64,000 nt of DNA. Source: an uncultured Gemmatimonadaceae bacterium. GTDB lineage: Bacteria > Gemmatimonadota > Gemmatimonadetes > Gemmatimonadales > Gemmatimonadaceae. Positions 51,801-56,391 of this stretch are shown here, one piece after another; the stretch's first letter is position 1, and each line of letters begins with the position of its first letter. The stretch spans positions 384,001-448,000 of the forward strand of contig CAWBOC010000010.1 in the NCBI GenBank assembly GCA_963790305.1, given 5' to 3'. Position numbers and translations under genes: made by a program. Under the pieces are notes generated by a model. That model ran no database searches, had not been told where the DNA came from, and was given only the letters and a program-made list of their open reading frames with translations.

Positions 51801-52136
51801 GGCCCATCGTGTCGTGGCGACGCCGGCGCGATCGGTAATGTCCTCGAACCGCATCTGCCCCTTGTTGAGATACAGGCGGCTCGAGACCATGTTGCCGGCG
51901 AAGAAAATATCGGCGAGCCCATCGTTGTCGACGTCACCGATAGCGACGCCGCCGCCGTTATAGACGTAGGGGTCGGTCTGGACGTTCAGCGTATCATTGG
52001 TGGTGATGGTGTTCGCGAAAGTGACGCCGGTCTGCGCCGGGCTCAGGAGCTCGAACAGCGCTTCGTCGCTCCCGTCGCCGCCGCAGCCCCCGAACGATGT
52101 GAGCGCGAGGAGGAGCACACAGACGGGCCGGCTCAC
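48750..52136 (-). CDS. FG-GAP/VCBS repeat lipoprotein with central ASPIC/UnbV domain (two propeller regions)
   Basis: Many DxDxDG..D repeats; HFGLG...LEVRWPDG. Confidence 0.9.
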   Translation of the reverse strand: MSRPVCVLLLALTSFGGCGGDGSDEALFELLSPAQTGVTFANTITTNDTLNVQTDPYVYNGGGVAIGDVDNDGLADIFFAGNMVSSRLYLNKGQMRFEDITDRAGVATTRWATGASMVDINDDGYLDIYVSVSGPAWTPPEHRANLLFINNGNRTFTEAASQYGLADVGFTTHAVFLDYDRDGCLDVFLLTNSPQDFFRGVTNQPAALRGQTPDSYNQLYRNPCRGEKGGRFTNVSDAAGILRKAGYGLGAVSADLNRDGWPDIYVSNDGPPNDVVYVNNGDGTFTDKADRWLKHASAAGMGIDIADFNNDGHPDILQVDMMPRDLDRRKRMSGFATYGSFQEWRRRGFRYDYSLNTLQLSNGVTTEGNVSFSEISRLAGVAHTDWSWSALFADFDNDGHKDIFIGNGYPKAVIDLDYLNALFALGRRNDAGTVRAARALLQGLHGYEEPNFIFRNAGDLTFIDKTRAWGMDRPSYSYGAAYADLDNDGRLDLVVSNIDAPAFIYHNVAPNDDAHHYLNVELKGESPQRATGATLTLTAAGQKQHLYYNPYRGFMSTVDPRAHFGLGRARRVDSLEVRWPDGRAQVLTGLDVDRLVTVRQIDARLTNDTTDVKDRRRWFEPIEGVPYTHQLGTSVDYSVQPLLPYMISRQGPALAVGDVDGDTLEDVFVGGGGGLAGTLFMQRKDGSFVESARAQPWDADKQHEDWGATFFDANADGRLDLYVASGGYQLAPSSPLLQDRLYINHGGGRFVRDTGALPVMLTSTSTVRAGDFNGDGRPDLFVGGRLTPRQYPYPTRSYLLRNDGGRFSDVTEQVAPQLVEPGGMITDAVWGDFDGDKRLDLVTVGEWMPIQFHRNDGSTLRNVTSATRRPSLRGWWYSLAAADFDSDGRSDLIAGNLGLNHTYTALKDSAFGVYANTFTGNQTTDVVLTKKIDGIEYSLGGLAPVGRAIYQTALKFPTYGSFARATISQLFSAAQLRQALHYEADTFASVFLRNDGGGTFSVSRLPTLAQISPVRAIVVHDVDGDGHRDVILAGNLYDTEPNTPRADAGNGLWLRGDGRGHFAPVPASESGFLAPLNVAGLALIDTPAGKALLVANTGDSLQTFAIRGARGARGAKRAKGAEGSPQRP

Positions 52137-53689
52137 GGTGTGGGGGCTGGCTTGACCGGCATTCTGTTCTCGAACAGAAGGACCGGATCGCGCTCCGTCG
52201 CAAGCTGCCGTCTGCCGCCCGGCCGTTGAAGGGCACCAACGTTCTGCAGATCCATGGCGCCGATGAGGACATCCAGCCGACCGTCTCGATTCAGATCGGC
52301 CGTCGCCGTGAGGCTCCAGCGATTGGCGGAGGCGATGCTGAAGGCGTAGGGCTGAAAGACGTATCGGCCAGCGCTCTCGAGGAACATGATGCCGCGCTCG
52401 GGATGGCGATCGAAATCCGCGAACGTGCTCGTGGCGAGAATGTCCAGGTCGCCGTCCCTGTCGAAATCAGCGACTTCCGCTCGAGCGGCTCCGTACACGG
52501 GGAAGAAGAAGCGCTCGCGGAAGCTGTTGTCGCCCTCGTTTTCCAGGATCCGAACGCCATGGTACGGCTTGAGCACGCGCGAAAAATCGAAGTTGTCGCC
52601 ATTCACGTAGACAATGTCGAGGCGTCCGTCTCCGTTGAAGTCGTGCATCGCAAAATACATCGAGCCGTACACGGGCGGAAAGCGCGCCAGTATCCGAGGC
52701 CGTGTGGAGAAGCGCCCTCGTCCATCATTTTCGTACAACACGATCCGCTCATCCCCCTGCGCGAGAAGGGCGACGATGTCCGGCGAACCGTCTCCGGTCA
52801 TGTCACGTATCTCGAATCTGATGGCGCCGGGGCTTGAATCGAGTATTCGTCGTTCATACCCCGACCCGTCGTTGCGATAGAGTGCAAGACGCCCACGGTT
52901 ATTGCCGTATTCGCAGATGAGAACGTCGTTGCGCCCGTCCCGGTCGAAATCGAACTGCTGGACGAACACGGGTCTGAACAGCGAGTCGATGAGAACTTTG
53001 CCGAGGCGAAGGGAATCCGTGCCGACAAAGTCGTACCGCACGAGCCTGCCCCTCGGCTGATCGTTCGGATCGAGAATTCCGGATTCGAGAATCAGGACGT
53101 GATCGCGCTCGACAATGACATCCGTCGGTGCGCTGGCTAACGGGAGCGACGAGAGGAGATGCCGGTCCCAGTCGAAGATCCGAAAGCTGTTACTGCCGGC
53201 CTCGCCGACGAAGATGCGCTTGCGTGTGGTATCAGTCTCGAGAAGCGTGATGATCGCGCTGCTTTGCATCCGCGGGACGAAGGGACCTATCCGGAAAAGA
53301 TCCGGGTCCACCTGTGGCTCGGCTGGCAGAGACTGATCCGGTAACGAGTCGGGAGCGCCCTCGCGATAATACCGAACGATCTTCGCCCACGATTCCTCCG
53401 ACGCTCCCTGCGTAAGGACCAACATGTGCGGAGTGCTCATGCTTTCATTGAGCGACGAGTCCGCGCTCACCCCAAGCCGCGGTGCCATCGCCGGCAACAC
53501 GCCGGCTTGCCACGTTGTCTTGTCCAACAGCTGCGGCTCCGGAAATGCGTGGCAGGCCGCGCAATATGCACGGGCGAGCCGTTCTCCGTCTGCGCCATTC
53601 GGTCGCTCGCAGCCCACGAGGGCAAAGCTCAACAGCGTCAGAAAGCACACCCGGATCGGGCAGGTCACGCGCGCGAGCTCCTCATTCAT
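52133..53689 (-). CDS. Cytochrome c (CxxCH) plus FG-GAP repeat lipoprotein
   Basis: Lipobox LVGC, YCAACH, DFDRDG/DMTGDG/DFNGDG/DLNRDG repeats. Confidence 0.85.
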   Translation of the reverse strand: MNEELARVTCPIRVCFLTLLSFALVGCERPNGADGERLARAYCAACHAFPEPQLLDKTTWQAGVLPAMAPRLGVSADSSLNESMSTPHMLVLTQGASEESWAKIVRYYREGAPDSLPDQSLPAEPQVDPDLFRIGPFVPRMQSSAIITLLETDTTRKRIFVGEAGSNSFRIFDWDRHLLSSLPLASAPTDVIVERDHVLILESGILDPNDQPRGRLVRYDFVGTDSLRLGKVLIDSLFRPVFVQQFDFDRDGRNDVLICEYGNNRGRLALYRNDGSGYERRILDSSPGAIRFEIRDMTGDGSPDIVALLAQGDERIVLYENDGRGRFSTRPRILARFPPVYGSMYFAMHDFNGDGRLDIVYVNGDNFDFSRVLKPYHGVRILENEGDNSFRERFFFPVYGAARAEVADFDRDGDLDILATSTFADFDRHPERGIMFLESAGRYVFQPYAFSIASANRWSLTATADLNRDGRLDVLIGAMDLQNVGALQRPGGRRQLATERDPVLLFENRMPVKPAPTP

Positions 53690-53725
53690 GTTCCGATGCG
53701 CCAGGGCCACAGCCCGCTGAACTGC

Positions 53726-53793
53726 CGAATGACACGAATGCTACGAATCAACACGAATTACGAGCGGGCGCAATTCGTGTCATTCGTGTTATT
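53726..53793. repeat. (ACACGAATn)n ... (ATTCGTGT)n nonamer inverted element
   Basis: cgaatgacacgaatgctacgaatcaacacgaatt ... aattcgtgtcattcgtgttatt. Confidence 0.75.
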
Positions 53794-53873
53794 AAGCCGT
53801 TCAGGGAGTTCCGTGGCCCGGCGAGTGGACATCGGCTGTTGCGTGACCGCATGACCCGCCACAGTTTGGCTGC

Positions 53874-54173
53874 GTGACGAACGATCCCCACGCAGGCCTC
53901 CGCGACAGAGTTCTCCAGCGCGTGCTTCAGGGCACCGGCGACACGGATCCCGCGATCCGCAGGGCCGCCGCCGAGGGAAAGGGTGTGCCCGCCGAGCTTC
54001 AGGCGCTGGTCGACAAGATTCACCGCCATGCGTACAAGGTGACTGACGAGGACTTCGCGCGCCTTCGGGCGGAGTACGAGGACGATCAGCTCTTCGAGGT
54101 CGTCGTGAGTGCCGCGCTTGGGGCTTCGCGAAACCGCTTGCTGGCGGGCCTCGAGGCATTGGACGACGCATGA
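53874..54173 (+). CDS. Small Cys-free AhpD/CMD-fold-like protein
   Basis: VDKIHRHAYKVTDEDFARL..YEDDQLFEVVVSAALG resembles the CMD C-terminal half; ATGA overlap with the next gene. Confidence 0.7.
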   Translation: MTNDPHAGLRDRVLQRVLQGTGDTDPAIRRAAAEGKGVPAELQALVDKIHRHAYKVTDEDFARLRAEYEDDQLFEVVVSAALGASRNRLLAGLEALDDA

Positions 54174-54748
54174 GACTTCACAAAGTGCACACCGGACATC
54201 GCCTTCGCGACAAGGCGATGCTGCGTCTCATGCAAGTGGTGATGGGGCATGCGCCCGGCGTCGTGCGAACGTTGCGCTACCGGAAGGAATTCTTCGGGCA
54301 GGCGTTCTCCGAGCTCACGCAGCAGGTGATGCGCGGTCCTTCACCCTGGAGCGTCGGCGAGCGCGAGACGTTCGCCGCGTTCGTCTCACGCCTCAACCAG
54401 TGCGTCTTTTGAACGAACGCGCACTCCGCGGTCGCGGAGGCGGCGCTCGGTGACGGCACCATGCGGCTCATCCTGGAGGACTATCGGACAGCGCCCATCG
54501 ACGAGAAGCTGCGCGCGATGCTCGCGCTGCTCGAGACGTTCACGCTCCATCCCGAGCAGCTGACCGCTGCGAAAGTTCGCGAGGTGCTGGCGGCCGGCGT
54601 CACGCGCGAGGGAATTCGCGACGCATTCTATGTCGCATTCCTCTTCAACACGTATGACCGGCTCGCCGACACTCTCGGGTGGGAGCTTCCGGACGAGGGC
54701 TACTACCTCAAGGCTGGGCGGTTCTTGTTGAAGAAGGGATACATGTAA
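54170..54748 (+). CDS. AhpD/CMD-family peroxidase-like selenoprotein (CxxU; TGA at 54410-54412), 192 aa with read-through
   Basis: ORF-track pieces 54170-54412 and 54461-54748 are in one frame: GERE..AAFVSRLNQCVF[TGA]TNAH. TGA occupies the second Cys of NxCxxCxxxH. Confidence 0.8.
54420..54442 (+). promoter_or_regulatory. Putative bacterial SECIS hairpin
   Basis: cgc-a-ctccgc-GGTC-gcggag-gcg; 17 nt separate the TGA from the apical loop. Confidence 0.65.
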
Positions 54749-54845
54749 GAGGCGCTAGAGGCGCTAGAGGCGCTAAAGGCGCTGAAGGCGCTAGCAACTG
54801 CGCGCCTCTAGCGCCTCTAGCGCCTCTAGCGCCTCTAGCGCCTCT
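54748..54845. repeat. (GGCGCTAGA)n ... (TCTAGCGCC)n element between convergent genes
   Basis: About five units per arm. Confidence 0.92.
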
Positions 54846-56391
54846 TCACCAAGGGATCTGCGGCGAGCGGTAGTAGTTCACCCCGAGAAAATTCCAGCGA
54901 GGCGCGTGCGCCGCGATACGCACACGAAAATCATCCCACCGCCGGGCTGACTGCGGAGACCAGCCGACTTCGGAGAGAGCAGGGAGCCGGGGCATCGCCA
55001 GGAACTGTACTGCGGTGATGTTGCGCAGCGTCTCGCTCCAGATCGGCCCTTCCACGCCCACGATATTGCTCTCCGTCACGCCCGCCTGGTACGTGGCCGG
55101 ATCCCAATTGTAAACGTCACTGACCTCGATGATTGCCGCCCACGTGAGTCCGAGCTCCGTGGTCGCCGTGTATTTCATGTCGAGGTACGCTTTCTTGGAG
55201 GGTGACATGATCAGCTTGGCGCCGGAGCGGAGCGCGAGGACGGCCGAGTCGCTCTTCCATTGCTGTGCGAGCGTCGTTGGGCGGAGCCGGGCCTTTCCGA
55301 TCTCCTCCCAACCCACCATCTCCTTCCCGTGCCGTACGACGATGTCCTGTACGCGCTCGACGAACTTGATGTAGTCCTCGTGCGTCAGCACCTCGACCTC
55401 ATCGCCGCCGATGTGGATGTACCGGCCGGGCGTCAGCGCGGCGAGCTCGCGAATGACGTCGTCGATGAGCGCGTAGGTCTCTTCCTTGTTGGGGCAGAAT
55501 GCGCTCCAGCCGACCTCGGTGCGCGTGTACAGCGCGGGGGGAATGCGGCTGCAGCTCAGCTCCGGGTGCGCCACGAGGGCAGCGTTCGTGTGGCCCGGCA
55601 TGTCGATCTCGGGGACGATCGAGATGTAGCGCTCCTGGGCGTAGCGAACGATGTCGGCGTACTCTGCCTGCGTGTAGAATCCACCGGGCCCGCCGCCCAC
55701 CTGCGTCACACTTCCCAGCTCGGCGAGCCGGGGCCGGGACTTGATCTCGATTCGCCACCCCTGATCGTCGGCGAGATGCAGGTGCAGGACGTTCAGCTTG
55801 TAAAGCGCCAGGATGTCGATGAACTGTTTCACCTCGTCGACGGTGAAGAAGTGCCTCGCGACATCGAGCATCGAGCCCCGCCATGCGAAGCGCGGCTGAT
55901 CGACGATGGTCACAGGGGGAACGACCCACGCGCCGTTGGTGCGCATGTCCGATTCGATCGCCGGTGGCATCAGCTGCCGGAGCGTCTGCATGCCACGGAA
56001 GAGGCCCGCCGCGGTACCGCTGATTCGAATCGAGTCACGTGTGACGGTGAGCTCGTAGGCCTCGCCGGTCGCGCTGGTGTTCAGTCGGAGCGCGATGGCG
56101 CCGGCCCGCGTTGCATCGCCGCCAACGGGAATCGGGTATCCCGTCGCCGGCCGCAGCAACGCCGCGAGCATCTCACCCGTTCGCATAACCTCCGCGACGT
56201 TCGTGAGCAACGATCGAGGTCGTCGAGTCGAGCCGGAATGGCTCGCCCTGGTTCGCTCTGATCGAAACTGGCGCGGGTACGATGGTGTGAGCCGCGCGCG
56301 TTGGGGAGACGGCTCCCGGCTGGCGCGGCCCGGGGCAGCCGGCGAGCGCGAAGCTCAGCACCAAGGCTCCCAGAATGCGGTGAGGGTTCAT
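54846..56391 (-). CDS. GH20 beta-N-acetylhexosaminidase lipoprotein; frameshift near 56212
   Basis: Lipobox LAGC in the upstream frame; RGSMLDVARHF, HLADDQGWR, PEIDMPGH, HIGGDE, WSE. Confidence 0.92.

Follow-up and report, generated by a model that had tools for sequence, protein, structure and literature searches.

The DNA analysed here, hereafter the window, is a 64,000-nucleotide (nt) stretch from an uncultured Gemmatimonadaceae bacterium (assembly GCA_963790305.1, contig CAWBOC010000010.1, positions 384,001 to 448,000), and the present work concerns two overlapping plus-strand genes located between its positions 53874 and 54748. On the basis of sequence comparison, the downstream gene (54170-54748) is, with high confidence, a genuine selenoprotein gene; it would encode an AhpD-like enzyme of the COG2128/TIGR01926 type carrying selenocysteine (Sec, U) in a CxxU motif. 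The upstream gene (53874-54173), referred to as the partner gene, specifies a protein of 99 residues that contains no Cys. Considered as a whole, these genes are best explained as a Sec-decoded AhpD-like enzyme paired with a dead paralogue, a reading to which we assign a probability of roughly 0.88.

An AhpD-like reading frame interrupted by a single TGA

The plus-strand frame opened by the ATG at 54170 runs to the TAA at 54746-54748 with a sole internal stop, the TGA at 54410-54412. A first-pass annotation of this DNA had pointed to two open reading frame (ORF) fragments that share one frame and are separated by a single TGA, which is borne out by both the sequence and its translation: the fragments 54170-54412 and 54461-54748 are in frame with each other, and reading through the TGA yields a protein of 192 residues. 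In its peptide context (NQ-C-V-F-[TGA]-T-N-A-H), the TGA occupies the second position of a CxxC-type motif (C78-V-F-U81...H85). This motif belongs to an active-site segment spanning 54365-54424, in which E66 is encoded at 54365-54367, C78 at 54401-54403, U81 at 54410-54412, and H85 at 54422-54424.

The assignment of the product to the peroxidase-related, CMD-fold proteins comes from Pfam, NCBIfam, and PDB profile matches. The read-through protein matched the Pfam CMD model (PF02627) with 33.2 bits, the cut-off being 23, and, with Cys replacing Sec, the NCBIfam model TIGR01926 ('peroxidase-related enzyme') with an expectation value (E) of 1.1e-20. A search of the PDB with a 24-member family profile retrieved 6k40 (DR1765 of Deinococcus radiodurans; E 6.5e-28), with further matches to 2pfx, 3c1l, 2oyo, and 2prr (E 1e-24 to 5.7e-21). 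Invariant positions among the 24 aligned sequences are E64, R65, E66, N76, C78, C/U81, and H85, and the spacing of E66...C78-x-x-U81...H85 is that of Glu74/Cys86/Cys89/His93 in 2PRR, as given in the accessible text of PMC4674687. The earlier proposal of a 192-residue AhpD/CMD enzyme that gene callers had split therefore finds support in the CMD match, in the CxxU column, and in the conservation of the TGA among relatives.

Conservation of the TGA codon

Searches of whole genomes of relatives revealed exactly one TGA in the window's own locus and in each of the eight other full-length matches of at least 52% identity, while the next whole-genome match, at 43% identity, is free of TGA. In a set of 30 fetched loci, the codon at the second position of the CxxC motif is TGA in 25 and TGC in four, the latter in more distant homologues. 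A separate locus scan, restricted to one genome per species, delivered 73 loci, mostly from metagenome-assembled genomes (MAGs) of Gemmatimonadaceae and otherwise from Polyangiaceae, Myxococcaceae, Gaiellaceae, Ktedonobacteraceae, and Tengunoibacter. TGA is found at the site in 72/72 loci that cover it, 71 of them scored by script and one (L115) by hand; locus L122 starts past the TGA site and was excluded from this count. Among the aligned database homologues, the Sec column holds Cys in ten and Trp in five. The latter are all JGI entries (P0002, P0003, P0004, P0007, and P0008), available as protein records only, in which Trp presumably stands for a TGA translated under another code. Many other database entries are truncated to 111 residues and begin just past the TGA. 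The question posed by the first-pass annotation, namely whether TGA or Cys occupies this column in homologues, is thus answered by TGA in the close ones and by TGC or Cys in those more distant.

Independent sequence support was obtained from assembled contigs rather than raw reads. Contigs from four runs of four studies span the TGA codon, with no difference at 54410-54412 among those listed, and the contig of one run (X3) matches the window with 0 differences over 54312-54462. A TGC, TGT, or TGG codon misread as a stop, a possibility that had also been raised at the outset, does not appear in these independent-run contigs, which show TGA. Conservation further extends in frame over the 16 codons that separate the TGA from the next ATG, the invariant His85 among them.

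A conserved hairpin downstream of the TGA

The TGA is followed by a hairpin of the selenocysteine insertion sequence (SECIS) type (54424-54439, plus strand), made of a perfect 6-base-pair stem and a GGUC loop (CTCCGC-GGTC-GCGGAG). This hairpin had originally been placed 17 nt after the TGA, a distance that holds for the start of the loop but not for the stem, which begins 11 nt past the codon. The 11-nt spacing and the G-containing loop fit the descriptions for Escherichia coli fdhF and for bSECISearch.

Comparison with relatives was far more telling than the hairpin by itself. In 23 Sec-form sequences from Gemmatimonadota, Myxococcota, Gaiellaceae, and Ktedonobacteria, 99.3% of the hairpin cells are paired, and three of the six pairs are changed on both sides (C-G to U-A, U-A to G-C, and C-G to G-U). 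The hairpin has a covariation score of 0.363 vs 0.114 in shuffled alignments, a value reached by 0/500 shuffles, and slid registers all scored far lower. Codons +4 to +9, which coincide exactly with the hairpin, have invariant third positions across 65 loci; in the same loci, flanking four-fold degenerate codons show 0.6-1.9 bits of variation. In the Cys forms L032 and L036, the hairpin is missing. A stem-loop 3' of the UGA with a G in its apical loop is hence conserved among the Sec forms, and the SECIS-like element of the first-pass annotation is supported by conservation, covariation, and frozen synonymous sites. An Rfam scan of 53600-55000 identified no SECIS family and returned only sub-threshold matches of microRNA models on a long palindrome. 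Our own genome-wide scan for a TGA followed by a hairpin produced 756 candidates in this GC-rich genome and was too unspecific to be used.

Selenocysteine machinery in the same genome

The sel genes on whose presence the initial claim had been made to depend were all found: the genome carries selA (C9:116585-117662), selB (C6:48894-50730; 261.4 bits), selD (C6:122300-123214; 359.1 bits), and a tRNA-Sec, all above cut-offs, with the tRNA gene lying ~95 nt behind selD (73.1 bits in Rfam; anticodon TCA according to ARAGORN). Together with this tRNA gene, selD occupies C6:122300-123401; it has a Sec codon of its own, a TGA within a glycine-rich G-x-G-x-K-type motif (C-A-G-U-A-A-K). A different TGA reported inside selD by the genome search was rejected as a frameshift artefact, the true Sec codon being located upstream in another frame.

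Elsewhere in the genome (C10:280325-280759), a second AhpD-like gene contains an in-frame TGA (C-K-Y-U-I-D-S-H), which is likewise followed by a hairpin. As many as three TGA-containing AhpD-like paralogues occur per genome among relatives, and the clade seems rich in AhpD-type selenoproteins.

A Cys-free partner linked to the enzyme gene

The partner gene (53874-54173, plus strand) has a GTG start and a TGA stop, and its orthologues are located directly upstream of the enzyme gene. Its stop codon overlaps the start of the enzyme gene by 4 nt, in an ATGA at 54170-54173. Immediately ahead of the enzyme gene, a relative of the partner is present in 66/73 loci, that is, in 66 of the 67 with upstream DNA, and in 9/9 of the close loci. 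Six of the loci that appear to be devoid of the partner begin inside the enzyme gene at a contig end; the only one with upstream DNA, L121 from Tengunoibacter, has a cytochrome P450 gene in the partner's place. By manual count, a 4-nt ATGA, GTGA, or TTGA overlap occurs in 58 of the 66 partner-bearing loci, an arrangement that suggests translational coupling of both genes. The Cys-form orthologue L032 also has an upstream partner (E 1.6e-18), which indicates that the pairing is independent of selenium.

Natural fusions were found in both orders. In a Gaiellaceae MAG (L117:94-879), partner and enzyme are joined in this order in one open frame, whereas the enzyme precedes the partner in P0072 and P0073, both CxxC forms, an order also seen in 12 other database proteins whose start lies past the presumed TGA. 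P0073 matches the window enzyme over residues 1-178 (34% identity, E 2e-27) and the window partner over residues 193-284 (28% identity, E 7e-13). Another database protein, P0033 (167 residues), resembles a deletion chimera in which the N-terminal two thirds of a partner precede the enzyme's C-terminal half.

When 1.84 billion representatives were searched with a profile of the partner family, 1,677 clusters were obtained at E <= 0.001, of which 1,010 reached E <= 1e-10; most are 100-125 residues long. No Pfam or NCBIfam model reaches its cut-off on this family, a member of which is annotated as 'hypothetical protein' at NCBI and which is represented only by unnamed clusters in Protein Atlas. 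The pair has no further conserved neighbour in the lineages compared, the adjacent genes being FG-GAP and GH20 genes here and P450/ABC1 kinase, 4Fe-4S protein, or ArsR/AHSA1 genes elsewhere.

Predicted fold of the partner and of the natural fusion

The first-pass annotation had described the partner as Cys-free and CMD-like. The absence of Cys stands as stated, and the likeness to CMD proteins rests on the predicted fold and on weak profile matches. Specifically, the C-terminal half of the partner matched TIGR01926 at E 0.006; a hidden Markov model of the partner, run against a small local database, picked up AhpD-like paralogues through their C-terminal halves (E 7.8e-6 to 6e-3); and two members of the partner family gave sub-threshold CMD matches. 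A profile search of the PDB with the partner retrieved nothing significant. The AlphaFold (AF2) model of the partner, with a predicted local distance difference test score (pLDDT) of 93.9, consists of five helices, and its best Foldseek matches fall in the structural family of the enzyme (template modelling score 0.69-0.70, E 0.075-0.17). VIA-align of this model with 3c1l, 2pfx, 6k40, and 2oyo gave Z 8.1-8.9, aligning 96-97 of the 99 residues across ~146 residues of the target. As judged from how MAFFT aligned the partner with the enzymes and from the helix assignments of the models, the partner appears to keep the helices that flank the active site and to be devoid of the catalytic helix and of both termini.

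The natural fusion P0073 was modelled from an alignment of database proteins only; a mixed alignment, which put enzyme cores onto the partner domain, was left unused. The predicted structure is one compact unit (pLDDT 92.6, predicted template modelling score 0.92), with human Sestrin2 as its best match (Z 22.1, root-mean-square deviation 2.4 Å over 240 residues, both domains included). Single AhpD-like chains gave Z ~13 against the same model and covered residues 1-171 only. Because the coupling of both genes is conserved, fusions exist in both orders, and the fusion model is like Sestrin2, partner and enzyme likely form an AhpD-like-type heterodimer with one live and one dead subunit.

Proposed mechanism

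According to the explanation we favour, the ribosome would read UGA codon 81 as Sec, so that 54170-54748 would be one intact gene. Decoding would follow the standard bacterial route, in which the 16-nt hairpin, with its start 11 nt past the UGA, would recruit SelB carrying Sec-tRNA(Sec). The product would be a thiol/selenol oxidoreductase of the AhpD fold with an active site formed by E66, C78-x-x-U81, and H85, most likely cycling between selenol/thiol and selenenylsulfide states. By analogy with its CxxC relatives, its role may be the reduction of hydroperoxides or of a peroxiredoxin-type partner. The product of 53874-54173 would be a shortened, Cys-free paralogue, translated in step with the enzyme through the 4-nt overlap and most probably standing in for one of the two subunits that AhpD-like proteins usually have in their dimer.

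Contrary evidence and alternative explanations

Several results weigh against this explanation. The TIGR01926 score of the read-through protein (74.2 bits) is below the curated cut-off (81.8), by which rule the enzyme is a near neighbour and not a member of that family. Folding of 54410-54470 gave z = -0.47, with 52/200 shuffles at least as stable; the hairpin alone is unexceptional in GC-rich DNA, so its weight comes from the comparison with relatives. The sequence link between the partner and the enzyme is weak (hhalign probability 2.5%), and structural Z values of 8-9 for the partner are within the range of chance matches for helical models. The two-domain model is that of a homologue, P0073 being only 34% and 28% identical to the window proteins, and AlphaFold may be reproducing Sestrin or AhpD dimers on which it was trained. 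Finally, selA, selB, and selD carry one frameshift each in this assembly and, if these are real, the strain would be unable to make Sec; three events in ~4.3 kb of sel genes somewhat exceed the rate found in essential genes (Poisson estimate P ~0.06).

The partner could also be something other than a subunit, namely a co-expressed regulator, chaperone, or substrate-delivery protein acting beside an enzyme that forms the usual homo-oligomer. We regard this as unlikely, though it retains a real share of the probability. A separate role of this kind would be consistent with the Tengunoibacter orthologue (L121), which has no upstream partner, and with the more distant Sec paralogues L033-L039, whose loci contain no separate partner. 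It does not sit easily with the natural fusions in both orders, with the conserved 4-nt overlap, or with the fused form, for which a confident single-unit model was obtained with its domains predicted to pack as in Sestrin2.

The frameshifts in the sel genes bear on another scenario, in which the selenoprotein family is real but this strain has lost selA, selB, and selD, so that the UGA terminates translation and leaves an 80-residue fragment. Against such a relic, we found that broken frames are not peculiar to the sel genes. Among six essential genes tested, rpoC (C9:421854-425883) and dnaE (C9:540917-544022) have one single-base frame change each and ileS (C9:62920-65525) has two, while rpoB, gyrA, and secA are whole, which amounts to ~4 changes in 19 kb. 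Frameshifts in essential genes reveal indel errors in the assembly, and broken genes in it are therefore not to be read as pseudogenes without reads. Besides, selA is whole and in one frame in 6/8 other genomes of the genus; in the remaining two, it is split over contig ends in one and yielded no match in the other, which is 71% complete. An independent contig shows the gene pair, its TGA, and the hairpin unbroken and with identical sequence, and the second TGA-containing AhpD-like gene of the genome is intact as well. Loss of Sec synthesis in this strain is thus improbable in our view.

It is very improbable that the UGA is read by an ordinary tRNA for Trp or Cys, or that TGA is reassigned in this lineage, either of which would render the protein selenium-free. 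The five JGI homologues recorded with Trp at the Sec column would fit such decoding, but TGA is also the stop of the partner gene in the conserved ATGA overlap, a dedicated tRNA-Sec and sel genes are present, and a conserved hairpin at fixed spacing is predicted by the Sec mechanism and not by plain read-through. As for a sequencing error, a nonsense mutation, or two separate small genes, suggested by the split in gene calls and by the many 111-residue entries that start past the TGA, we give them practically no credence, since they are contradicted by the TGA in all 72 covering loci and in the independent contigs, and by the in-frame conservation of the 16 codons up to the next ATG with His85 among them.

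Surroundings of the gene pair

A long hairpin (54747-54846) with 45-nt arms that are 93% complementary, consisting of 9-mers in tandem (AGAGGCGCT and its complement), occupies all of the space left between two convergent genes, from one stop codon to the other. Arrays of at least three such 9-mers, often as facing pairs, occur 56 times in the genome, and the depth of metagenome contigs over this hairpin is up to 63 vs 2-9 over the gene. The element looks like a dispersed palindromic repeat or a two-way terminator. On the other side of the pair, a second intergenic inverted repeat (53717-53804; 32-nt arms, 81% complementary, with short ACACGAAT-type repeats) is placed between the partner gene and a divergent minus-strand neighbour (52133-53710), whose 525-residue product contains FG-GAP repeats and, close to the N-terminus, a CxxCH motif of the haem c type. 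In L031, a locus from another family of the same order, the divergent neighbour is likewise an FG-GAP gene. A scan for sigma-70 promoters returned 0 sites, which is little informative for this phylum.

Discussion

AhpD-like CxxU proteins were introduced in 2005 as a new selenoprotein family of COG2128, with 27 sequences from the Sargasso Sea (PMC1088965). The Global Ocean Sampling study of 2008 counted 299 sequences of 'AhpD-like 1' and 70 of 'AhpD-like 2' (PMC2398784), and a 2026 review has an entry 'AhpD-like protein, TIGR01926, CxxU' (PMC13188914). That this family is already known was not mentioned in the first-pass annotation. Since it has been known since 2005, the core finding is an annotation fix that adds a further member. 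The window enzyme shares with the described proteins the AhpD/CMD fold, Sec at the second CxxC position, a 3' hairpin, and widespread Cys homologues; it differs in its company, as the accessible text of these three publications makes no mention of an obligatory Cys-free partner gene. The term 'Gemmatimonad' is absent from the accessible text of the 2026 review (PMC13188914) and of the BSepDB paper. Searches of open-access full text found no paper on selenoproteins of Gemmatimonadota and none describing the split enzyme-partner pair.

The AhpD of Mycobacterium tuberculosis (1knc, 1gu9), whose attacking residue is Cys133, belongs to the same superfamily and has the same Glu...CxxC...His proton-relay motif. 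It differs from the window enzyme in where the motif sits along the chain and in its oligomer, and it is a weaker fold match to the P0073 model (Z 7.1-7.2). The best solved relative is DR1765 (6k40), with a CxxC at the same column, formed by Cys and not Sec. According to a review (PMC8945050), its deletion mutant is sensitive to H2O2, and both Cys of the CxxC are needed for complementation; no partner gene is reported in the accessible text of that review.

According to Kim et al. (PMC4674687, accessible text), the two domains of human Sestrin2 overlap the 2PRR dimer and the C-terminal one has lost the helix-turn-helix motif. Sestrin2 (5dj4, 5cuf) has, in a single chain, an AhpD-like domain at the N-terminus that is catalytic and a degenerate domain behind it, as the enzyme-partner fusions would, and the fusion model superposes on it. 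The window differs in that each half has a gene of its own, with the order reversed, and in that the active site would contain Sec. The sequence link of Sestrin2 to the fusions is weak and confined to the N-terminal domain (E 0.0021), no Pfam match to Sestrin (PA26) was found for P0072 or P0073 at E <= 0.01, and the acidic hinge DDYDY, which defines Sestrins according to the accessible text of PMC11429811, is absent from the partner alignment. The resemblance to Sestrins, as far as the models tell, would be one of architecture and not of membership, and there is no indication of a leucine- or GATOR2-type function for the window pair.

Bacterial fusions of two AhpD-like domains, one of them Cys-less, have been described in Corynebacterium ureicelerivorans and Comamonas aquatica and proposed to be Sestrin-like (PMC11429811, accessible text). 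Like the present pair, they combine one live AhpD-like domain with a Cys-less pseudo-domain. They differ in being single chains in which the Cys-less domain is N-terminal and keeps the helix-turn-helix, whereas here the pseudo-domain is a separate 99-residue protein, or the C-terminal part of fusions, and appears to have no catalytic helix. The accessible text of the same publication, a 2024 review of Sestrin ancestry, states that no prokaryotic form with the helix deleted was found. The partner family and the enzyme might represent a split bacterial Sestrin architecture, the step that this review could not find in prokaryotes, a proposal that we consider doubtful. If it is true, the dead subunit would have a function of its own, for instance ligand binding or partner docking, gating a selenium-based peroxidase.

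The selenoprotein adds nothing new in kind, and its constant companion gene is the less ordinary point. Public protein sets contain split or truncated versions of the enzyme throughout the Gemmatimonadaceae, a lineage common in soil, and the partner, apparently coupled or fused to the enzyme across several phyla, is yet annotated as a 'hypothetical protein'. The pair is a concrete, testable case of an enzyme with a dead paralogue, and it may parallel, in bacteria, the origin of Sestrins from an AhpD-like dimer.

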